Part shown: piece by piece, positions 5,816 to 22,170 of the stretch
How the letters are laid out: every line of letters starts with the position of its first letter
Position numbering within the stretch: the stretch's first letter is position 1
DNA from: Promethearchaeota archaeon
Lineage (GTDB): Archaea > Asgardarchaeota > Lokiarchaeia > Sigyniarchaeales > SOKP01
Direction: 5' to 3'
Length of the DNA: 64,000 bases
NCBI GenBank assembly: GCA_016840165.1
Contig: JAEOSU010000051.1
Span: forward strand, 128,001-192,000
Notes under the pieces: generated by a model
Told to the model about the DNA's origin: nothing
Databases searched by the model: none
The model's input: only the letters and a program-made list of their open reading frames with translations
Position numbers and translations under genes: made by a program

Positions 5816-7039
5816 TTGCCAATAATAACTCCTCAGGATATCGCCCATAATTTTTTAAATAAGAAAATATCAAAAAACGAAGCGCTTAAAAGTTTAGAAT
5901 TATTAATCAATGAAAGTTTTGCGCCCGAAGTTCGAGCTGATACTATAAACATTCTTGAACATCTTGCTATTTTTAATCAATCGGTTTATGATCTTTTGGA
6001 AAAATGTTTAATTACAGATGAATCAGATCTCGTAAGATTTACTGCAGCAAGAGTATTAATACAGAATTTCGAAATTTCTGAGGATACTCCCCTATTTTAC
6101 GCTTTAGAAAATGAGCAATCGATTTTTTTTCTTAGGAACTTATTACAGGTCAACCTTAATTCAGAAACTCTTCAAAAACTCCAAACTTTAATTAAAAAAA
6201 AAATTTCTAATTTTTACAATCTTAATCCTGCAGATGCTCAATTCATATTAGATATTGAATACTTGGACTATCTCAAATTTAAAAAAAATTTTAATGAATT
6301 CATTAATAAATTTGATATCCAAGAGAATGAGAAACAAGAATATTTACGAGAAAAGGCAAGATTGGGCTATAAGGGATTAGGAAGAGTGATTAAGAGTGAA
6401 AATGGTTTCATAACTGGATTAAAGTTACATGATTTCGACAAAATACCCAATTCTATCAAAAATTTAAAAAATTTGGAATACTTGGAAATTAAACGATCAA
6501 ATTTGAGCAATTTAGACGAAAACTATGATAATTTACTTAATTTGAAATACTTAATTTTGAGTAATAATAAGTTGGATAAAGTGCACAATTGGATATATGA
6601 GTTTGCACAAAATAGGGATTATGCTGCTAAATACATCAAAAATGGCGTCTCTTATTCTGAAGCTATTATATTAGGATTGCTAGAACTCCTTTTAGGACAA
6701 GCACTTGTAAAATTAGATCAAAATGAATCGTTTAATCAGTCTTTATTATACTACTTTAAAATGAATCAGAATGGTAATCTTATTGGAATCAATATCTCTT
6801 CAGACTTAAATAAAATTGGAATTTTTCCGGAAACGATTTGTTCATTAGTATATCTAAAAGAATTATATTTGCCCAATCAAAACATTAGAATGATTCCGTC
6901 TTGTATTTCTAAATTACAATATTTAGAAACTCTTGATTTAAGTTATAATGAATTAGTTGAACTTCCATCAACAATTAATGATTTAAAGAATCTAAAATAT
7001 TTAAGATTAGAAGGAAATGATATAAAAACTAATAATTAA
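5816..7039 (+). CDS. HEAT-like N-terminus plus two leucine-rich-repeat blocks
   Basis: HEAT-like DESDLVRFTAARVL; LRRs such as LKNLEYLEIKRSNL, LQYLETLDLSYNELVELP and LKNLKYLRLEGNDI. Confidence 0.8.
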   Translation: MPIITPQDIAHNFLNKKISKNEALKSLELLINESFAPEVRADTINILEHLAIFNQSVYDLLEKCLITDESDLVRFTAARVLIQNFEISEDTPLFYALENEQSIFFLRNLLQVNLNSETLQKLQTLIKKKISNFYNLNPADAQFILDIEYLDYLKFKKNFNEFINKFDIQENEKQEYLREKARLGYKGLGRVIKSENGFITGLKLHDFDKIPNSIKNLKNLEYLEIKRSNLSNLDENYDNLLNLKYLILSNNKLDKVHNWIYEFAQNRDYAAKYIKNGVSYSEAIILGLLELLLGQALVKLDQNESFNQSLLYYFKMNQNGNLIGINISSDLNKIGIFPETICSLVYLKELYLPNQNIRMIPSCISKLQYLETLDLSYNELVELPSTINDLKNLKYLRLEGNDIKTNN

Positions 7040-10635: not shown

Positions 10636-11340
10636 ATGAAACCAAAAATCATAAAGTCTATTGGATTAGAACATCCATCCGTAAGAAGAGTAATAGAGAT
10701 AGCTGAAGAAATCATGGATAAAAATAAAGTCTTAAATATTGACACTCTATATAATGTTTCTAAAAAAGAATTAAAGATCCCTAGAAATGGGCTTTTATTT
10801 ATAATCCAATTTCTAATAAATAATAAGATTCTGATTGAAGGTTCAAAATTCTCTAAAAAAACAGTATTATCAAATCCAATTAGGTATGCAATATATCGAT
10901 TTATTGATTTAAATCCAGGAGTACACTTTTCTGAATTGAGAAAAAGAAGTATTTCAGGTGAAAATATGAGTTCAGGACAACTTATTTGGCATTTAGGCAT
11001 GTTAATGAAATTTAATTTTATAAGGAAAATTAAAGTCGGAAATTATTCAGTTTTTATTCCGTATGGAATGGATGAAGAAAATGGGAAAATTTTTTTTCTT
11101 ATAAGGGATCGTATTATCTATAAACTATTAACATTATTGATTGAGAGAGAAGTATTAGTAAAGGCTGAAATCTATAAAATTTTAGATGAAAAGAGAGAAA
11201 AGGTATATTATCGAGTTAAAAATTTAATGGATTTAGATATAATTGCTATGAATAAAGATTCGGACAGAGAAATCGTTTTTAGATCTAATAAAAAGAAATC
11301 TATCATAAAAATTTTGAAATCCCCAAAAATATATTTCTGA
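10636..11340 (+). CDS. Multi-winged-helix protein (COG3398/ArsR-like tandem wHTH)
   Basis: VL.N..R..IY.FI..NPGVHFSEL...GQL.WHL..L motif, with wH-like segments before and after. Confidence 0.8.
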   Translation: MKPKIIKSIGLEHPSVRRVIEIAEEIMDKNKVLNIDTLYNVSKKELKIPRNGLLFIIQFLINNKILIEGSKFSKKTVLSNPIRYAIYRFIDLNPGVHFSELRKRSISGENMSSGQLIWHLGMLMKFNFIRKIKVGNYSVFIPYGMDEENGKIFFLIRDRIIYKLLTLLIEREVLVKAEIYKILDEKREKVYYRVKNLMDLDIIAMNKDSDREIVFRSNKKKSIIKILKSPKIYF

Positions 11341-11364
11341 AAAAACAAAAGAAGGTGTAGAGTC

Positions 11365-12669
11365 ATGTTGATGTTAAATTGGAATATTGAAGTAATTATC
11401 GATTTTATTGGTGCTTTTGTCGGGATTATACTTACATTGATTAGCTATTATACACCAAAAGCGAAAAAAATTAAATCACTATTTTTTATTAGGTTAGGTT
11501 TTATCTTCTTTTGGATTTTTATGTTTATGGACGGGTTATCATTTTTATATTTAAATGAAATTATTGGATTGATAAGTGGTTTTTTTGTTGTTTTTGCTAC
11601 AATATTTATAATCATTGGTGTAAATTATACTATAAATGAGAATTTCAATTCTTTCGGACTTCAAATTGTTATCGCATTAGCGGTCTTATTTTTGTATTTA
11701 GGATTTCAACCAGGTGCTATTGAGGTAAAATTTCAATCGGGTTATTTTAGGGTAAGTTGGGGAGGATTATTTGGTATTTTAGGAATGGCGTTTACTGGCA
11801 TCGCAATGCTATATCTATTTTACTGGGGGTTAAGAACATGGCTAAATGCCCCCTTTTTAATAAAAAAAGAAGCATCTATTTTTTTATTTGGTATTTTGAT
11901 AATTTTTCCTTTCAGTTTTATATTTTATATTTTGTATCTTTTTGAGCCGATTTTTCTGCTTATTTGTGATGTAACTGTCGCAATAGGGGCTTTTATTGTT
12001 TCTTTAGTTGTTCTCCGAGAGCCAAAATTATTATACATATTACCATTTACGATTTATAGAATAATTGTAAAAAGTAAAAGAGGAGACCCACTTTATTACC
12101 ATGATTGGTCTGAATCTACTCTGAATGAAACAATTTTTACAGGTTTTTTGAATGCTGTACAACTTATGAGTAAAGAAGTAATAAATATAGGCGGATTATT
12201 AGATATTAATTTAGAAAATGGGATCTTAATTTTAAAAGAATCTAAAAATATAACAGTAGGGCTTGTTGCATCAAAATCGTCGAAACTGTTAAGAGATTCA
12301 GTTATTAAATTTACTGTAGATTTTGAGAGAAAGTTCGAATATCAATTAAAAAAGTCAATTACTGATATGGCTCAATATGAAACTGCATTTGAATTAATCG
12401 AAAAATATTTTTCTAACTTTCCTTATAATATAATCCAGAGTAAAAAACAAGAATTGTACTTAACGGGGAAATATTTAAAGATTCCCTTAGAATTAGAGAA
12501 CAAATTAAGAAAAATCTTCACAGATGAAGAGGAATACCAGACAATTAAAGCAGAGTTGATTCGATCCCCTCTTTCTTTCACTTCTGAATTCATTAGACTT
12601 CATGACGAATTGAACAATGAGATAAAGAAAATTTCCGATGAAGATGTCAAATTGATTGATGAAAAATAA
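11365..12669 (+). CDS. Seven-TM membrane protein fused to a cytoplasmic longin-like domain and helical tail
   Basis: Seven hydrophobic segments in aa 1-218, then IYRIIVKSKRGDPLY...IFTGFLNAVQLMSKEV...FTVDFERKF...YETAFELIEKYF, which matches the Asgard longin pattern. SD-like GAAGGTG upstream. Confidence 0.78.
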   Translation: MLMLNWNIEVIIDFIGAFVGIILTLISYYTPKAKKIKSLFFIRLGFIFFWIFMFMDGLSFLYLNEIIGLISGFFVVFATIFIIIGVNYTINENFNSFGLQIVIALAVLFLYLGFQPGAIEVKFQSGYFRVSWGGLFGILGMAFTGIAMLYLFYWGLRTWLNAPFLIKKEASIFLFGILIIFPFSFIFYILYLFEPIFLLICDVTVAIGAFIVSLVVLREPKLLYILPFTIYRIIVKSKRGDPLYYHDWSESTLNETIFTGFLNAVQLMSKEVINIGGLLDINLENGILILKESKNITVGLVASKSSKLLRDSVIKFTVDFERKFEYQLKKSITDMAQYETAFELIEKYFSNFPYNIIQSKKQELYLTGKYLKIPLELENKLRKIFTDEEEYQTIKAELIRSPLSFTSEFIRLHDELNNEIKKISDEDVKLIDEK

Positions 12670-12821: not shown

Positions 12822-12966
12822 TACTAATATTCAAACCTTTACTTGTATAAAATCGGTCTTTATGACTTTATATTATAGTAAAATTATCTTAGTTATAAGC
12901 ATATCTTTGATAATCTAAGATATGAGAAATTCAGCAACAATTCTGAATAATTTAGGTGAAATTATT

Positions 12967-15564
12967 TTGAAAAATTTTACTAAGAAATTTTATGCAATTT
13001 TAGGTATTTTCTTTATTCTATGGTCTTTTTCTATAATCTTTATTCGATTACCAGGAAATCAGCTAAACTATCACACTATAGTTGAATTTCCAAAAACTAG
13101 TCAATCATTAGATATTATAACTCCTGAAAATAAAACCTACCTTGAACCAATGGACGGTTATTTTCCAGGTACATTTGGTTTTGAAAATGATAAACTTAAT
13201 GAATATCAACCAATGTTATTTAGTAATATTTATGAAGGAGATTGTAATGGGAGTGTAATTGAAGAGTTAGATGGCCATAAGAAGGTATTCAATATATCTG
13301 ATGATGAACTTGTTGGTTCAGCTATAATATTGCAAAAATTTAGCGATGCAGGGTTTGAAAATCAAACATATGGAACAATAGAATTTTGGTTTAGAGTACA
13401 ACCAGGAAGAAGCCTTAAAAATACTGAAATTCGATTACATTGGGATCATAACCCCACATCGGCCGCGATTAATATAAGAGTGTATGGTGCCCTCCAACAA
13501 TGGCAATTCTGGAATGGAACATGGACTCAAATTCCAAATATTCACGATCCAAGTAATAATACATGGCATCATATTAGAATACAATTTCGATGCCTTGGGG
13601 CTGGCTCTTATCTTGGATTGAATGAGAATGAATTCCAAGTCGTAATCGATGGAATAAGCAGTGGAGCTCTTAACTTTTTTCAATCTGCAACGGAGATAGC
13701 GATGTTCGAACCTACCCATACTCAAGCTGCTGGATATAAGGACAATTATGCCTATATTGATGCCATTGGATACTCATGGGATCCATATTATAATATTGGA
13801 GATAATTTGAATGAAGGACTATTAATAAATTTTGAAACGGATATAAATTTTGATTGGATAGGATATTCCTTAGATAAAAATACCAATAAAACCATATTAG
13901 GGAATACAACAATATGCTATCCTACGAATGGATTACATTCAATACAAGTATTTGAAAATAACTCAGTAGGAACCATATATTCCTCGGGACTTAGATACTT
14001 TTCAATACAGGAACCAATTATACTTTTAACACCTGAGAATAAAACTTATAGTGCACCCATGAGTGGATATTATCCAGCGACCTATGGATTTGAAGATGAT
14101 GAAGATGGGCAACCACCTAAAGATTGGGTAATCCAAAATAACGCAGGAAAAATTGAAGTTATTTCAGATTTATATAATTCTAAAAAAGTACTAAGATTAT
14201 ATGATAACCATGGGAGCATTCCATCAAGAATTTATAATAGTTTTAGTGCAAAAGATAATGGAACAATTGAATTATGGATACAACAAAATTTACTAGACGA
14301 TGATGGTAATCGAGGGCAAATCTCAGGTTATGGAAATGGCATGATGATTTTTCGGGTGAAAATGGTAGGACCATTAAGTGGGGGTTCAGCTAAATGGCAG
14401 GCAAGAGATAATGAAACAGACGTTGATATTGTCGGAGCACCAACTCCCCAAATACATACGTGGTATCATGTTCAGATTGATTTTGAACACACTCTAGGAG
14501 CATATCAAGGACTTGGTCAAAATGAATACTTTGTATATATAAATGGATTACGCTATGGTCCATATAATTTCACTTCTGATGAACCATTAGATGAAATACA
14601 TCTACACACGTATAGTTATGGAGAAGATTATGATACTTATTACGATGCTGTAGGATACTCATGGGATTCGGATTATAATATTGGTGATAATTTAGAAGAG
14701 GGCTTATTAATTAGCTTTGAAAATAATACCAATTTAGATTGGATAGGTTATTCAATAGATGGGCAGATGAATAAAACAATATCTGGGAACTCAACCATAA
14801 AATTTCCTAATGAAGGTTTACATAAAATACAACTTTTCTGCAATAATACTCTTGGTGAGACCTATCAATCAGCTATTCGTTATTTCTTAATTGATAGCAC
14901 TATGCCAACTTTAAATATTCTGTCTCCTATCGATGATGTATTTTTTGCCGACTCTCCTCCCAATTACCAGATTTCGTATACTGAAGATAATTTAGATTCA
15001 ACATGGTATTATTTAGGTCCAGGAACAAATATTGTGATGTTTATTGGAACTGAGGGAACGATTAATCAAACAGAGTGGGATAAATTAGGAAGTGGATTAG
15101 TTTCGATAAGATTTTATATAAATGATACAGGAGGATTAGAGAGTTATGACGAGGTCTTTATACAAAAAGACGTAACTCCGCCTACTTCAAGCATAGTCTA
15201 TACACCATATATCAATCCAAATTATGTGAGTATTTCTACAACATTTTCATTTTCTTATAATGATGGGACGGGTTCTGGCGTTTCTGTTGTACGGTATAAA
15301 ATTAATGATTCTATTTGGTATGATTATACTGATCCTTTTGACTTATCTGCTTATGCTTACGGTGATTATCTTATCACATATCAAGCAATTGATGAAATGG
15401 GAAATGTTGAATCAGAAAACACACTTTTAGTCATATTAACGGAGATTATTACTGAGCCACAACCAGGCATACCAGGATATAATTTATTACTTGTATTGAG
15501 TTTAATAAGTTTATTGTCAGTCTTACTAATTAGAAAATATACTAAGAATCAATCAAAATTTTAA
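12967..15564 (+). CDS. Secreted surface glycoprotein: two ~300-aa ConA/LamG-like + Ig repeats, further Ig-like domains and a Loki-CTERM anchor
   Basis: N-terminal signal/TM. Repeated TPENKTY..PM.GY.P.T.GFE...GTIE.W...W.H..I.F...DA.GYSWD..YNIGDNL.EGLLI.FE. C-terminal PGIPGYNLLLVLSLISLLSVLLIRK. Many NxS/T sequons. AGGTGA SD precedes TTG 12967; the ORF extends to 12922. Confidence 0.82.
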   Translation: MKNFTKKFYAILGIFFILWSFSIIFIRLPGNQLNYHTIVEFPKTSQSLDIITPENKTYLEPMDGYFPGTFGFENDKLNEYQPMLFSNIYEGDCNGSVIEELDGHKKVFNISDDELVGSAIILQKFSDAGFENQTYGTIEFWFRVQPGRSLKNTEIRLHWDHNPTSAAINIRVYGALQQWQFWNGTWTQIPNIHDPSNNTWHHIRIQFRCLGAGSYLGLNENEFQVVIDGISSGALNFFQSATEIAMFEPTHTQAAGYKDNYAYIDAIGYSWDPYYNIGDNLNEGLLINFETDINFDWIGYSLDKNTNKTILGNTTICYPTNGLHSIQVFENNSVGTIYSSGLRYFSIQEPIILLTPENKTYSAPMSGYYPATYGFEDDEDGQPPKDWVIQNNAGKIEVISDLYNSKKVLRLYDNHGSIPSRIYNSFSAKDNGTIELWIQQNLLDDDGNRGQISGYGNGMMIFRVKMVGPLSGGSAKWQARDNETDVDIVGAPTPQIHTWYHVQIDFEHTLGAYQGLGQNEYFVYINGLRYGPYNFTSDEPLDEIHLHTYSYGEDYDTYYDAVGYSWDSDYNIGDNLEEGLLISFENNTNLDWIGYSIDGQMNKTISGNSTIKFPNEGLHKIQLFCNNTLGETYQSAIRYFLIDSTMPTLNILSPIDDVFFADSPPNYQISYTEDNLDSTWYYLGPGTNIVMFIGTEGTINQTEWDKLGSGLVSIRFYINDTGGLESYDEVFIQKDVTPPTSSIVYTPYINPNYVSISTTFSFSYNDGTGSGVSVVRYKINDSIWYDYTDPFDLSAYAYGDYLITYQAIDEMGNVESENTLLVILTEIITEPQPGIPGYNLLLVLSLISLLSVLLIRKYTKNQSKF
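13108..14895 (+). repeat. Intragenic tandem duplication, two units of about 900 bp
   Basis: Units start near 13108 (LDIITPENKTY) and 14017 (IILLTPENKTY); both contain GYSWD.YNIGDNL.EGLLI and WIGYS.D...NKTI.GN.TI..P..GLH.IQ. Confidence 0.85.
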
Positions 15565-15576
15565 ATTCTTTTTTTT

Positions 15577-16149
15577 TTATTGTTTTACTCTTAGATAATA
15601 ACCTTTATCACGTAAATTTATAGCAATAACGTCTTTAGCTTTGAGTTGCGAAATTTGCGTGCTTTCAACTTTAGAATACGCTAAAGCTAGAATTTCATTC
15701 ATTTCATTCATTATGAGCAAAATATCTTTATTATGGAGAGAAGGGGATACTTTATGAACCATCTCCTTTAATATATTATTCCCATACAACACAGATTTTT
15801 CACCTTTCTTATTAACTTGAATGAAATTTTCTTTCATAAGGTAATGATTTTTATAAAGAAATTCTGCTCCTTCGATGCTTATAAAAAAATTACCTTTATT
15901 AATATATCCGAAGTAAAGTCCAATTTCGTGAATTTTAGCATATAATTCTTTAAATTCTTGAATATAGGATTGGTTAGAGGTAATTAAATAAATTTTATAA
16001 GTATTTTTCAGTGAATCAAAAAGCAAATAAAAGTTATAGTGCCCTTCTTCAAAGATAGAATTTATATTTAAACTAATTTTTGAGAGAGAATTGATTATAA
16101 TTGATTTCTCATAATTATTAACAAGCCTAAACTTTTTTGAAGCACTCAT
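15577..16149 (-). CDS. Nip7-like PUA-domain ribosome biogenesis protein
   Basis: IGLYFG, ISIEGA, GEKSVLYG.NI, LALA and terminal D.GYYLR are typical of Nip7. Confidence 0.82.
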   Translation of the reverse strand: MSASKKFRLVNNYEKSIIINSLSKISLNINSIFEEGHYNFYLLFDSLKNTYKIYLITSNQSYIQEFKELYAKIHEIGLYFGYINKGNFFISIEGAEFLYKNHYLMKENFIQVNKKGEKSVLYGNNILKEMVHKVSPSLHNKDILLIMNEMNEILALAYSKVESTQISQLKAKDVIAINLRDKGYYLRVKQ

Positions 16150-16603: not shown

Positions 16604-17320
16604 ATGGGAATTCGTAAAATAGAAGACGAGATTGATTTAAGAGAGGCAATGAAAAAAAAGGCGGCTGAATTAAAGATTAAAGATATTCAAGCTAAGGCAG
16701 CCACAGAAAACTTCACGAAGGAAAAATTAAATGAATTGGCTAAAAGACACGGGATTATTTTAGCTTTAACTCCTGAACTCAAGGAAGAGGTAAAAAATCT
16801 GCAGAAAAAATATAATATACCGTCATCTAAAATCATTACAGAGCAAATTACCGAAAACGATGTGCTTGTTAAATTTTCAAAAATTGATCATGAAAAGCTA
16901 GGTATGCTCGCTTATCAACGAGTTCTGATGCAGAAAGAAGAGATAGGAGTTGGATTACTTCCTTTAACGGAGGTCTTTGATTTAATAAACACAGGAATTT
17001 TAAGAGGAATTGTGGACATAAAAGATTTACACAAGGCACTGAAAATTTTAAAAAAATCACATGTAATTGATGATCTTAAAGAATTAGAATCAGGTATTAT
17101 CATGGTAAGATTCTTTCCAGTAGAATACACCAGTGATCAAGTAAAAGTAATTGGCATTGCTAAGGACAAAGGTTTTATTTCCCTTGAAGATGTATGCGTT
17201 GAACTTAATTGGTCTCAGGATCGCGCTTTAGAGACTCTGAAATCACTTGAAGAAACAGGTGTCGCAAAATTTAGAGAATCCTTACTTAAAGGAAAACAAT
17301 GGTTTTTCCCTTCAATCTAG
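16604..17320 (+). CDS. vps22: ESCRT-II Vps22/Vps36-like (EAP30) protein
   Basis: MGI start, GLL.L.EV, D..KAL..L, P.E...DQ..V, G.IS......L.WS..RA...L..L...G and terminal WFFPS tandem winged helices; ESCRT gene context. Confidence 0.85.
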   Translation: MGIRKIEDEIDLREAMKKKAAELKIKDIQAKAATENFTKEKLNELAKRHGIILALTPELKEEVKNLQKKYNIPSSKIITEQITENDVLVKFSKIDHEKLGMLAYQRVLMQKEEIGVGLLPLTEVFDLINTGILRGIVDIKDLHKALKILKKSHVIDDLKELESGIIMVRFFPVEYTSDQVKVIGIAKDKGFISLEDVCVELNWSQDRALETLKSLEETGVAKFRESLLKGKQWFFPSI

Positions 17321-17322
17321 AA

Positions 17323-18228
17323 TTATTCAACTATTATTTTAAATGAGATTTGCCCATTTTCAGCTTTAATAATTACTCCTTTCTTATCTTTTTCAAGCAT
17401 TTTGAATATTTTAATAATATCCTTTTTAGGCAAATTACTAAATTCCTTATTTGATTCTCTAATTTCGAAGATCAAAATTGGTTCTAAAGGTGAGATTTCT
17501 ACTGCCCACTCATATATTTCTTGAGCCCAATTATCAAGGGACTTCCAATACACTCGCAACTTTTCTTTGCTCTTAGATAACCATTCTGCTTGCTCTCTTT
17601 CAACTAATTCTTCGGCAATTTCCTTTAATGCGTCTGCTCGATCTTCAAATTTAGAAAATGGTTTCTGAGATTCTAATTGTCTTAAATATAAAATATGCAA
17701 TATGGCATATCGGGCATAATCAAATAGAACTTTAGACCACTCCTTTTTCCATGATTCAAAATCTTTCAAATCCTGCTTTTTATTAGGCAGAGTATACATA
17801 AAGATATAGCGTTTTTCTTCTAACCATGGATAATCATTTACTAAGAGTTCATAAGTAGAAACTTCTTTAGATATAACACCTTTTTCACCTACAATCTCTC
17901 GTTCAATTAATTTAAGCTCCTGCTCTACTTCTTCGGCATTTTGCTCATATGCCTTTATGTCTACTTCCCCCAGCTTCGATGTTAAAAAGTCTTCGATCTT
18001 ATCTAATCTTGCTTCAATATCTTGGCTTTTTGCTGCTGAAACAACATCATCTTCCACACTTTCTCCGTGTTCTACTTCAGACTCTTCCTCTTTTTTTCGT
18101 TCTAATTCTTTTTGTTTTTTCAGTTCTTTTAATCTTGCTAATTCTTTTCTTAAATCCTCTAATTCTTTCTCAGGTTTTTCCTTTTCTTCTTTAGTTATTT
18201 CCTTAGGTCTCTCTCTCTGACGTTCCAT
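17323..18228 (-). CDS. vps25: ESCRT-II Vps25-like protein with long charged N-terminal extension
   Basis: YPW...FMYTLP, W..EW..V, AEW, VYWKSLDNWAQEIYEWA, EF..L....I......LE...K pattern; 22 bp downstream of vps4. Confidence 0.85.
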   Translation of the reverse strand: MERQRERPKEITKEEKEKPEKELEDLRKELARLKELKKQKELERKKEEESEVEHGESVEDDVVSAAKSQDIEARLDKIEDFLTSKLGEVDIKAYEQNAEEVEQELKLIEREIVGEKGVISKEVSTYELLVNDYPWLEEKRYIFMYTLPNKKQDLKDFESWKKEWSKVLFDYARYAILHILYLRQLESQKPFSKFEDRADALKEIAEELVEREQAEWLSKSKEKLRVYWKSLDNWAQEIYEWAVEISPLEPILIFEIRESNKEFSNLPKKDIIKIFKMLEKDKKGVIIKAENGQISFKIIVE

Positions 18229-18250: not shown

Positions 18251-19468
18251 TTAATATTCTCCATATTCTTCTGCCCAGTCTTCATACTTATTCAATTCAC
18301 GCCCAGTTGTCATCGGTTTAACCTTTTTAAGTGTTTTTACAAAATCTTTTAATGTTATATCCCTTACTACTACTTCTTTATCTGAATCTTCAAGTAGACC
18401 TCCCATATCCAATTCTCGGATAGGAATCATAATTACTTCTCGACAGACATTCGAGATATCTCTTCCCGAATATCCCTCTGATCTGACTGCTAATTCAATA
18501 TAATCCTCATCAGTCAAATCTGAGTTAATCCCTGCTGTATGTATTTTAAAGATACCCGCTCTCGCTGGCATATCTGGAAGCGGAACATAGACCTTTTTCT
18601 CAAAACGACTAAGCATAGCAGTATCTATATCCCATGGTCGATTAGTGGCCCCTAATACTAATAATGGTCTGTCGTGTGTTGATTTCATTCCTTGAATTTC
18701 ACTGAGAAGTTGAGTTTTAACTCTTCGCTCACCACCACCTTCATGGCCCTCTCCTCTCCTAGTAGCAACTGAATCTATTTCATCCATAAAAATTAAACTA
18801 GGAGCTTTAATACGAGCTACCTTAAATAATGAGCTTATTAGCTTTTCACTTTCCCCTAACCATTTACTTAACATGTCAGCAGACGAAACGCTAAAAAAAG
18901 TAGCTTTGCATTCAGTAGCTGCTGCTTTTGCCAATAAAGTTTTACCACATCCTGGTGGACCAAACAAAAGTATTCCTGACCAAGGCTTTCTTGCACCCGT
19001 AAACAGTTCTGGCTTCATGATAGGTAAAACAATTGCTTCTCGTAATGATTGCTTACAGTCTTCTAAACCTGCAATGTCCATCCATTTTACATTTGGAGAT
19101 TCGGTTAGTATTGTTCCTGAAATAGAGTCAATAAGTTCCTGTTCTTCAGCAGAATAAGCACCTTCCGTATCTGAAGATGCTTCTCCTTTTGCTTCACTCG
19201 AAGCACGCGGGGGTATTGAGCCTCTTCTCCTTGGTCCACTTAAATGAGCTTTAAGTGCCTGTGCTCTACCGACATATTGCTCAATTTGCTCTTGGCAGCG
19301 TCTAATCATAATTGGATTTTTATTATACTTTACAAATTGTATTAAAATTTCGGCAGCTCGTTGGTATTTATTTATTGCTTGTCTATACCTTCCACCCTCG
19401 TCTAATCTTACAGCTGCTTGTGCTTCTTCCACCGCATACTGATAAAGCTTACTATCAACACTTGACAT
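18251..19468 (-). CDS. vps4: Vps4 AAA ATPase with N-terminal MIT domain
   Basis: MIT helix bundle (A..AV.LD..G.Y..A...Y..A), PNVKW.DIAGL, GPPGCGKT, SKWLGESEKL, FMDEIDS, ATNRPW and GYSG.DI motifs. Confidence 0.95.
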   Translation of the reverse strand: MSSVDSKLYQYAVEEAQAAVRLDEGGRYRQAINKYQRAAEILIQFVKYNKNPIMIRRCQEQIEQYVGRAQALKAHLSGPRRRGSIPPRASSEAKGEASSDTEGAYSAEEQELIDSISGTILTESPNVKWMDIAGLEDCKQSLREAIVLPIMKPELFTGARKPWSGILLFGPPGCGKTLLAKAAATECKATFFSVSSADMLSKWLGESEKLISSLFKVARIKAPSLIFMDEIDSVATRRGEGHEGGGERRVKTQLLSEIQGMKSTHDRPLLVLGATNRPWDIDTAMLSRFEKKVYVPLPDMPARAGIFKIHTAGINSDLTDEDYIELAVRSEGYSGRDISNVCREVIMIPIRELDMGGLLEDSDKEVVVRDITLKDFVKTLKKVKPMTTGRELNKYEDWAEEYGEY

Positions 19469-19677: not shown

Positions 19678-20304
19678 ATGGGTTTTCTCAAAGATATGAG
19701 TAAATGGCTTTCTGGGGGAAAAAAGAAAGATACTGTTCGTTCCGCCACCGTAAAATTAAAAGTATTTAACAAGCGATTGATGCGACAAACCAAGAAAATG
19801 GAAATGACTGCGAAACTAGCGAGAGATAAAGCGGTGAATTTACGCAAAAGTGGTGATATGGACGGCTCTGCTTTTCATGCAAGAAACTATCTTCAAGTAA
19901 AGAAACAATCAAGAGCAATAGACCACTTTAGAACCAATTTAGAAGGGATGGTCTTTAAATTGGAGCAAGCTACGGCTGTCAAAGATGTAGCTGATGTTAT
20001 GCATGGCATTGCCGCAAGTCTAAGTGCTTTAAAGAGTCAATTATCTATACCACAGCTTACTGACCTTATGGATAATATCGGAATCGACATGGAAGATTTT
20101 GATCTTACACAAGAAATAACCTCGGATGGAATTAGTGATATACAAATGGATTCTGCAGTCACTGACGATCAAGTTCGAGAAGTCTTAGGAGAGATTGATG
20201 CCGAGATTGGAGCTGAAATTGGAGGGGCCCTTCCCACAGTTGATCCCGATGGGAAAGTCAAAGAACTCGAAGAAGAACTAAATAAATTGAAATCAAGAGA
20301 TTAG
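19678..20304 (+). CDS. ESCRT-III Snf7-family protein, Vps2/24/46 class
   Basis: Amphipathic N-terminus MGFLKDMSKWL, basic helical hairpin, acidic C-terminal half, C-terminal MIM1-like ELEEELNKLK; divergent from vps4. Confidence 0.9.
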   Translation: MGFLKDMSKWLSGGKKKDTVRSATVKLKVFNKRLMRQTKKMEMTAKLARDKAVNLRKSGDMDGSAFHARNYLQVKKQSRAIDHFRTNLEGMVFKLEQATAVKDVADVMHGIAASLSALKSQLSIPQLTDLMDNIGIDMEDFDLTQEITSDGISDIQMDSAVTDDQVREVLGEIDAEIGAEIGGALPTVDPDGKVKELEEELNKLKSRD

Positions 20305-21156: not shown

Positions 21157-22170
21157 TTGAATCCAGAGTTAATTACTATTGGAAGTTGTACACTCGATTG
21201 TATCATTCAAGTGAAAGATATTCTTCGCTTTGAACTATTTGATAAAGATGTTGTTAAAAAATATACTGCTATCGAATATAGTAGAAAACTGAATGTAGAA
21301 GATATCCGATTTGTTCCCGGTGGTTCAGGGGCAAATATTGCCGCAGATTGTGCTATGTTAGGGATTAAATCAACTTATATAGGGGTTATTGGAAAAGACT
21401 TTTCCGCTGAAATCTGTTTAGAAGATTTAAAAAAGAGAAATGTGGATATTTCACAGATCTACCAGACTGAAGAAGATAATACAGCGTTTTCTGTAATCTT
21501 AAAAACAGAATGGGGAAAAGATAGAAGTATATTGGCATACAAGGGCGCAAATAATTTACTTACACCCGATCATGTTAAAGAAAAACTTTTTAGTAATATT
21601 AAAGCTTTTGCGTGGAGTTCCCTTACTACAGAAAATGGTTGTAAGGCAATCGAAAAAGCGATAAGACTAACTAAAGATAATGGTGGTATGGTATTTGCAG
21701 CTCCTAGTATGTCTATTCTGAAAAATAATCCAAAATGGGCAAAAACTTTGATTACAAACTCCGATGTTGTGTCAATGAATGCAGAAGAAGCAGAAGAGTT
21801 CACTAAAGAACCCGAACGCTACTATGCGGTTAAAAAGATGATTGATCTTGGCCCTAAATTGGTATCAATCACAGATGGCGCTCGTGGTTCATTAGTGACA
21901 GATGGAGAAAAAATAATCAAGAGTGGTATATATAATGTTAATGTAATAGACACAACAGGTGCGGGAGATGCGTTTCTTAGTGGGATACTCCTATCAAAGT
22001 TAAATGGTTATTCATTAGAGAAAATGACACAAATTTCAACAGCAATGTCTTCCTTAGAATCTATGGAGATTGGGGTAAGAGAAGGATTACCAAGTAATCT
22101 TAGTGATATCGAAAAATTCATGTCGAAAAATAATCTTCAACAGAACGTTTCTTCATTGGCGGATTATTAA
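21157..22170 (+). CDS. PfkB-family carbohydrate kinase
   Basis: PGGSGANIA, N.EEA, ITDGARG and DTTGAGDAF motifs. Confidence 0.92.
   Translation: MNPELITIGSCTLDCIIQVKDILRFELFDKDVVKKYTAIEYSRKLNVEDIRFVPGGSGANIAADCAMLGIKSTYIGVIGKDFSAEICLEDLKKRNVDISQIYQTEEDNTAFSVILKTEWGKDRSILAYKGANNLLTPDHVKEKLFSNIKAFAWSSLTTENGCKAIEKAIRLTKDNGGMVFAAPSMSILKNNPKWAKTLITNSDVVSMNAEEAEEFTKEPERYYAVKKMIDLGPKLVSITDGARGSLVTDGEKIIKSGIYNVNVIDTTGAGDAFLSGILLSKLNGYSLEKMTQISTAMSSLESMEIGVREGLPSNLSDIEKFMSKNNLQQNVSSLADY

Follow-up and report, generated by a model that had tools for sequence, protein, structure and literature searches.

Among the eukaryotic signature proteins listed for Asgard archaea are longin domains, commonly interpreted as signs of membrane trafficking driven by GTPases. 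Their abundance in these archaea is already known, and the eukaryotic longins closest to the one described here are VAMP7, Sec22b, Ykt6, AP sigma, COPI zeta, the TRAPP subunits Bet5, Trs23 and sedlin, the first longin domains of Mon1, Fuzzy and HPS1, and SRX of SR-alpha. Further systems close to the present locus are the HisKA_7TM and 7TMR-DISM kinases, which carry a seven-helix N-terminal input module, the BlaR1/BlaI and MecR1/MecI pairs, in which a membrane sensor and a winged helix-turn-helix (wHTH) protein are encoded together, and the membrane-tethered regulators ToxR and CadC. A precedent for Asgard longins in prokaryote-type signalling is provided by the NPRL2-like longins with two-component domains of Liu et al. 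(bioRxiv 10.1101/2020.10.19.343400), whose text near Fig. 5c names neither a fusion of a longin to a seven-transmembrane (7TM) bundle nor a wHTH operon partner. The 64,000-nucleotide stretch analysed here (positions 128,001 to 192,000 of contig JAEOSU010000051.1 of a Promethearchaeota archaeon, assembly GCA_016840165.1; this whole stretch is referred to as the window) has a G+C content of about 30% and encodes such a fusion at positions 11365..12669 of the plus strand. Most probably the 434-residue product is a signal receptor, hitherto undescribed, whose output passes through a wHTH partner encoded immediately upstream and not through a small GTPase. No description of a 7TM-longin fusion, of its wHTH partner or of kinase-fused relatives was found in the literature, the supplement of Liu et al. 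lying outside this search. The Asgard-eukaryote structural clusters of a 2026 preprint include "7TM proteins" and a cluster resembling a class C GPCR. New to the present analysis are the kinase-fused relatives, a natural fusion of receptor and partner, the correlation between the receptor tail and the partner, a test of GTPase gene density and an enrichment of surface proteins beside the pair.

Architecture of the receptor and its relatives

The receptor displays seven hydrophobic segments in a Kyte-Doolittle profile, and an AlphaFold2 model built from 125 homologues (predicted local distance difference test, pLDDT, 91.9; predicted template modelling score, pTM, 0.83) positions the transmembrane (TM) helices at residues 8–29, 37–62, 65–91, 97–113, 134–161, 164–190 and 196–218. 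The 7TM domain, delimited by hydropathy, alignment and the model, occupies residues 1–221 (11365..12027, plus strand). Read from the sequence, the loops hold at least nine Lys and Arg residues on one side of the membrane against two on the other, so that by the positive-inside rule the N-terminus is predicted to lie outside and the C-terminus, with the longin domain, in the cytoplasm. TM4 and TM5 are connected by a β-hairpin (residues 119–132; 11719..11760, plus strand) with strands 119–124 and 127–132, assigned by DSSP on the model within a block of pLDDT 96–98 and placed outside by the same loop charges. The entry of the chain into the first longin strand is formed by the linker REPKLLYILPF, identified in the alignment at residues 218–228 (12016..12048, plus strand), in which Glu-219, Pro-220, Lys-221, Tyr-224 and Pro-227 are invariant among 37 orthologues and Pro-220, Leu-226 and Pro-227 are at least 90% conserved among 125 family members. 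The longin domain is followed by a linker and helical tail (residues 356–434; 12430..12666, plus strand) with predicted helices 375–384, 388–400 and 403–431. The initial annotation, made from the sequence alone, had described seven TM helices, a hairpin-like loop between TM4 and TM5, the REPKLLYILPF segment ahead of a soluble domain and a helical tail of about 80 residues, and these elements all reappear in the hydropathy, alignment and model.

Searches against Pfam and NCBIfam identified no kinase, no cyclase and no significant family whatever in the receptor, HisKA and HATPase_c included, which agrees with the absence of a His-kinase or cyclase motif reported in the initial annotation. A sequence-profile search of the PDB gave a best E value of 0.79 and nothing lower, and Foldseek against the PDB returned no match at E ≤ 0.001, only weak rows for class C G-protein-coupled receptors (GPCRs) and longins. 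The existence of more than 420 homologous clusters, together with a soluble domain that is better conserved than the TM part, argues that the open reading frame (ORF) is a real gene. Close homologues all occur in metagenome-derived genomes of Promethearchaeota/Lokiarchaeia, where "hypothetical protein" is their sole annotation.

The cytoplasmic domain (residues 225–355; 12037..12429, plus strand), defined on the AlphaFold2 model and by structural comparison, is, as modelled, a true longin fold. The elements assigned by DSSP, β1 (230–237), β2 (242–247), α1 (255–273), β3 (278–283), β4 (286–292), β5 (296–302), α2 (307–329) and α3 (335–349), follow over residues 230–349 the order β1-β2-α1-β3-β4-β5-α2-α3 that is characteristic of longins, in a block of pLDDT 81–98. 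In an exhaustive structural comparison the domain aligns with VAMP7 (4afi_B) at Z 12.9 and a root mean square deviation (rmsd) of 2.6 Å over 118 residues, with Sec22 (3egd_C) at Z 12.6, with the Fuzzy/Inturned longins of CPLANE (7q3d_C) at Z 12.3, and with synbindin, sedlin, AP2 sigma and SRX at Z 10.9–11.4. The strand and helix order and the VAMP7 and Sec22 scores thus confirm the longin pattern that had been recognised behind the 7TM bundle. The N-terminal helix of roadblock proteins is absent from the modelled soluble domain and roadblock proteins rank below longins in Foldseek scores, which argues that the assignment as a longin is right. The receptor has the strand and helix order, the α-β-α sandwich and the whole 125–130-residue domain (Z 11–12.9) in common with eukaryotic longins. 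In contrast to these, its longin comes directly after a 7TM bundle, to which an invariant linker joins it, and precedes a helical tail, or a histidine kinase in relatives; neither a GTPase nor a SNARE motif nor a coat partner accompanies it.

The support for the longin identity at the level of sequence is indirect and transitive, passing through standalone paralogues. The receptor itself has no Pfam match, and Fuz_longin_1 is found at E of about 1e-3 in two of 125 relatives. With a hidden Markov model (HMM) of the longin domain, about 28 ORFs were recovered from the genome to which the window belongs, among them a paralogue at C43:26037-26447 (E 1.9e-5) that passes Fuz_longin_1 with 33.3 bits against a cut-off of 26.1; Fuz_longin_1 matches several of the ORFs found with the HMM, its cut-off being passed by at least two standalone proteins, each some 135 residues long. 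A longin-type domain is also C-terminal in other membrane proteins of the same genome, encoded at C66:70316-71950 (minus strand), C27:54696-56288 (minus), C66:36302-38593 (plus), C16:2358-4634 (minus), C56:246-2486 (plus) and C2:53600-55843 (minus); their architectures include two proteins of about 12 TM helices resembling the major facilitator superfamily (MFS) and several of about 750 residues, which are single-pass except for one of about seven TM helices. Membrane-anchored longins look like a general theme in this genome.

Structurally, the 7TM part is best matched by the alkaline ceramidase ACER3 (Z 14.9, rmsd 3.6 Å, 196 aligned residues), followed by 7TM domains of class C GPCRs at Z 12–13.8 (Foldseek E about 1e-3), of which mGlu1 reaches Z 13.8 with an rmsd of 4.0 Å over 216 residues; Z values below about 13–14 are common among helical bundles. 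The ACER3 match raises the alternative of an enzymatic or transport function for the 7TM part, for instance as a ceramidase/PAQR-type hydrolase, with the longin merely regulating or anchoring it, and the longin domains fused to MFS-like 12-TM proteins in this genome point the same way. However, the residues of the TM domain that are invariant among the 37 orthologues (Asn-5, Ser-38, Arg-43, Pro-116, Gly-134, Trp-154, Gly-155, Thr-158, Pro-163, Gly-176, Tyr-188 and Gly-208) include no conserved His/Asp metal-binding set, the GPCR bundles score nearly as high as ACER3 in a range where helical bundles commonly match, and the kinase fusions described below argue for a sensor, such that a catalytic or transport function is highly improbable. 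Arg-43 lies in TM2, and the cytoplasmic loop between TM5 and TM6 carries the conserved motif WG.KTW.NAPFLIKKEA. Like class C GPCRs, the receptor has a predicted outside N-terminus and inside C-terminus, a hairpin where these have extracellular loop 2 and, in the model, a similar packing of helices. In contrast to GPCRs, it has no sequence signal (no 7tm GPCR family matches it at E up to 1), its structural scores stay within the range of helical bundles and there is no sign of a G-protein-type transducer.

The HisKA_7TM and 7TMR-DISM kinases resemble the receptor in their N-terminal seven-helix input module, and kinases occur among its close relatives; in contrast to them, the receptor has no kinase and no Pfam match, and carries a longin where PAS, GAF or HAMP domains are usual. 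At E up to 1, the Pfam family HisKA_7TM (PF16927) matches neither the receptor nor anything else in its genome; one relative gives E 4.9e-4, with 20.4 bits against a cut-off of 28.6. By shape, the ESM Atlas yields a bacterial HisKA_7TM kinase at a TM-score of 0.44 over 229 residues, and by language-model features HisKA_7TM clusters are nearest (0.87–0.88), which constitutes a lead only.

The relatives themselves are more informative about the role of the module. Among 1.84 billion representative proteins 557 were found, and these take three forms. The tail-bearing form, of 430–440 residues and with up to eight copies per genome, is essentially confined to the window's own family among 201 sampled Asgard genomes. 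The tail-less form, of about 355 residues, occurs in several Asgard families and is represented in the window's genome by two tandem copies on another contig. The third form comprises about 30 Asgard clusters of 620–640 residues, one member of which is named a Hermodarchaeota sensor histidine kinase, where the 7TM bundle and longin are followed by HisKA and HATPase_c. An HMM built without the kinase proteins locates the longin of this form at residues 217–357 with E values of 1e-31 to 1e-38, and its profile aligns with that of the tail-bearing form at probability 100 and E 8.6e-41. The longin of the kinase form stands at the position occupied by PAS, GAF or HAMP domains in ordinary kinases, and the 7TM-longin unit can therefore be read as a putative signal-input and transmitter module. 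The kinase-fused relatives, recognised by sequence comparison, provide the strongest evidence for such a sensor-input role, and the remark in the initial annotation that prokaryotic 7TM modules usually feed kinases holds true for the receptor's own relatives.

Three-winged-helix partner and helical tail

The partner gene (10636..11340, plus strand) encodes 234 residues arranged in three winged-helix domains (approximately 14–72, 73–146 and 153–234), with a net charge of about +19, a weak Pfam match to HTH_HVO_0163_N and an AlphaFold2 model of pLDDT 90.2. Its best structural matches are the MarR, ArsR/SmtB, MecI and Fur wHTH regulators at Z 9–10.6, the match of one winged-helix domain with MecI reaching Z 10.6. 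The partner stop codon TGA (11338–11340) and the receptor ATG are separated by 24 nt, and a Shine-Dalgarno-like GGTG, read from the sequence, lies at 11354..11357 on the plus strand, 7 nt before the ATG; this arrangement is consistent with one predicted operon. The conservation of the pair was followed in 67 related loci of species-representative genomes. A partner homologue lies directly upstream and on the same strand in 62 of them, and the other five are on cut or short contigs. Genomes with several receptor paralogues hold one partner for each receptor. Pairwise identities among receptors track those among partners from locus to locus (r = 0.85), and where a single genome carries paralogous pairs, the divergence of the two members is matched (42–59% against 40–62%). 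Thus, the pair duplicates as a unit.

In one species receptor and partner are joined in a single natural polypeptide of 676 residues, P0123, with the receptor first and a complete partner behind the tail. Its C-terminus aligns with the partner in hhalign at probability 100 and E 5.5e-54, and the fusion recurs in a second assembly at 99.85% identity. No longer fused forms (761–2170 residues) turned up, which is weak evidence. Co-folding of receptor and partner gave ipSAE values of 0.26, 0.53 and 0.52 (median 0.52) against 0.00 for the best control, with at least 65% of contacts agreeing between runs and a partner pLDDT of at least 72. The mark applied is reached by 58 of 80 solved complexes and by 2 of 110 mismatched pairs, and passes at or below 0.60 count as weak. 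Set beside the strong genetic prior, the predicted complex lends mild support to binding of the partner by the receptor.

The presence of the partner follows that of the tail. The partner accompanies 62 of the 67 tail-bearing loci and none of 20 tail-less loci, and it is absent also at the two tail-less copies of this genome and at P0175. As the partner is never near tail-less relatives, the tail is the best candidate for the partner-specific element. In a full-length profile alignment the tail takes the position of HisKA, the dimerization and histidine phosphotransfer (DHp) domain, of the kinase relatives. Its motif E-L-x-R-S-P-L falls opposite their H-box H-E-L-R-T-P-L with the His replaced by Ala or Thr, and Glu-397 and Pro-402 of the tail are invariant. 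Aligned on its own with the DHp region of the kinase relatives the tail gives no significant result (hhalign probability 0.2, E 0.31). These sequence features offer a lead according to which the tail would be a decayed DHp and the family a pseudo-histidine-kinase that binds a transcription factor rather than phosphorylating one.

Proposed mechanism and the small-GTPase question

The reading favoured here, if with modest confidence, is that the receptor is the membrane sensor of a two-gene unit belonging to one Lokiarchaeial (Promethearchaeota) family and signals through its longin domain and tail to the wHTH partner. The 7TM bundle, with its hairpin outside and its conserved buried arginine, would perceive a signal, possibly one from, or about, the large Loki-CTERM surface proteins encoded beside the pair. 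The resulting change would travel through the invariant REPK..Y..PF linker into the cytoplasmic longin domain, which may serve as transmitter and docking module. Through direct contact, the longin and the 80-residue helical tail would then hold or release the basic three-winged-helix partner, which in turn may bind DNA and alter transcription of putative target genes. This arrangement is similar to BlaR1/BlaI and MecR1/MecI in the joint encoding of a membrane sensor and a wHTH protein, and the fused variant P0123 resembles the membrane-tethered regulators ToxR and CadC. In contrast to BlaR1 and MecR1, the receptor has no protease domain and no sequence relation to them, and its partner consists of three winged helices, the analogy being functional only.

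Several points weigh against this reading. The co-folding pass of 0.52 falls in the weak band, and the correlation of divergences is in part the common history of neighbouring genes. No operator-like motif beyond chance is common to the regions upstream of the partner and surface-protein genes of the window. A membrane-tethered DNA-binding protein, as represented by the fused form, is unusual, and the winged helices could be protein-binding modules instead. Finally, what the longin fold is chiefly known for is the regulation of GTPases and trafficking, and not the binding of transcription factors.

One alternative is a receptor-controlled longin platform, acting as a scaffold of guanine nucleotide exchange factor (GEF) or GTPase-activating protein type for a small GTPase in the manner of a GPCR analogue. 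The close match of the fold to VAMP7, Sec22, the longins of CPLANE Fuzzy/Inturned type and the TRAPP longins speaks for it, as do the genomic longin paralogues that pass Fuz_longin_1, the family of the GTPase-contacting longin of Mon1, Fuzzy and HPS1. Structural neighbours of the longin in the Atlas include Asgard longins fused to Arf/Ras-type GTPases, and the genome, of 3.6 Mb, holds about 90 small-GTPase-like ORFs, or roughly one per 40 kb, as counted by an iterated search from two Arf/Ras-type seeds. The genomic context of the family argues in the opposite direction. The surroundings of the 67 family loci contain seven GTPase ORFs in 735 kb and the 64-kb window contains none, so that at the genome density of about one per 40 kb no genomic link to GTPases emerges. 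Asgard GTPase genes are reported not to share operons, as a rule, with genes for longin or roadblock proteins (PMC10933270), and the missing adjacency is for this reason a weak negative. The universal partner is moreover a wHTH protein, the relatives feed histidine kinases, and known longin GEFs are hetero- or tri-longin assemblies, the receptor chain having one longin only. On this evidence a GTPase platform appears unlikely. A version in which the 7TM-longin protein is itself a true receptor-regulated platform, serving a small GTPase from among the roughly 90, while the wHTH protein is a scaffold or a further output, is likewise quite unlikely. Were a platform of this kind real, it would be a prokaryotic counterpart of receptor-to-GEF signalling.

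The initial annotation had seen in the protein a functional analogue of a GPCR with small-GTPase regulation as its possible output. Of this proposal the 7TM bundle and its GPCR-like topology stand; the proposed output is not supported, as GTPase genes are not enriched near the family and the conserved partner is the three-winged-helix protein. One arrangement, at tail-less relatives, can be counted for a GTPase connection. In two congeneric genomes a small GTPase gene of 181–186 residues (L112 2897–3457, plus strand; L113 2540–3085, minus strand) adjoins a tandem pair of tail-less 7TM-longin genes in convergent orientation, at a distance of 4–41 nt. In the window's genome, 3.2 kb separate the orthologous tandem (C51:126491-128905) from its nearest GTPase-like ORF.

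Gene neighbourhood and significance

Receptor and partner lie in a conserved block that comprises genes for a CYTH protein, an RsmB/Nop2-like protein, the partner, the receptor, in some cases a surface protein, a Nip7-like PUA protein, EAP30, Vps25, Vps4, Snf7 and PfkB, and that is present in the window and in roughly half (25–37) of the 67 loci. Downstream of the receptor the window encodes a Nip7-like UPF0113/PUA protein (15577–16149, minus strand), an EAP30/Vps22-36-like protein (16604–17320, plus), a Vps25-like subunit of the endosomal sorting complex ESCRT-II (17323–18228, minus), Vps4 (18251–19468, minus), Snf7 (19678–20304, plus) and a PfkB kinase (21157–22170). This position of the main orthologous copy suggests the alternative of a membrane adaptor, or a receptor for cargo, with a link to trafficking or ESCRT; its longin would play the part that longins have in SNAREs or in the sigma subunits of adaptors, and the partner would be an ESCRT-II-like module for binding proteins. 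ESCRT-II subunits consist of winged helices, and the fused form would hold such helices at the membrane. Paralogous pairs retain the partner away from ESCRT genes, however, and the ESCRT adjacency is therefore read as ancestral synteny and not as functional coupling. In a maximum-likelihood tree the copies in the ESCRT block form the backbone of the family and the paralogue clades lie elsewhere in the genome, the context labels requiring 8 changes against 19 in shuffles. The synteny may only mirror slow rearrangement within one family, and ancestral synteny within that family is the probable explanation. The kinase-fused relatives point to signalling, and a trafficking role is very unlikely. 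The ESCRT-II-like interpretation of the partner was rejected, no ESCRT-II chain being present among its 50 best structural matches and its folds best matching MarR, ArsR and MecI.

The gene that follows the receptor (12922..15564, plus strand) encodes a surface protein of 880 residues that combines a hydrophobic N-terminal segment with an internal duplication of two repeats of about 300 residues each, an OmpL47-type barrel (barrel_OmpL47, residues 768–837, 2.9e-13) and a Loki-CTERM sorting signal (residues 850–875, 20.7 bits against a cut-off of 19.9), the last two assigned by NCBIfam. Homologues of 430–1452 residues flank 12 related loci. Of 62 loci, 16 have a surface-type ORF, defined as large and carrying an N-terminal hydrophobic segment and a C-terminal anchor, at a distance of up to 1.5 kb from the pair, where the genome density of such ORFs predicts about 1.5 loci; these 16 loci belong to several clades and show differing orientations. 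The naive P of 1e-12 for this enrichment is overstated, since related loci are not independent. Near tail-less relatives a surface-type ORF is found in 1 of 20 loci. The Loki-CTERM-type surface proteins are thus candidate targets, inputs or co-sensors of the pair. Elsewhere in the window, at 5816–7039, lies the gene for a 407-residue protein with C-terminal leucine-rich repeats (LRR_14, 7e-17); LRR proteins have been noted as enriched in Asgard genomes.

In this receptor family a longin is hard-wired to a seven-helix sensor and appears to be used in the manner of a PAS/HAMP-type transmitter. The receptor-partner pair represents a compact two-protein system whose natural fusion may help to identify the binding target of an archaeal longin, and the recurrent Loki-CTERM surface proteins beside it are candidate inputs or targets. 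If the reading of the pair as a sensor unit is correct, part of the Asgard longin expansion would serve prokaryote-style signal transduction and not trafficking, and the way in which longin genes are counted in arguments about eukaryogenesis would change.

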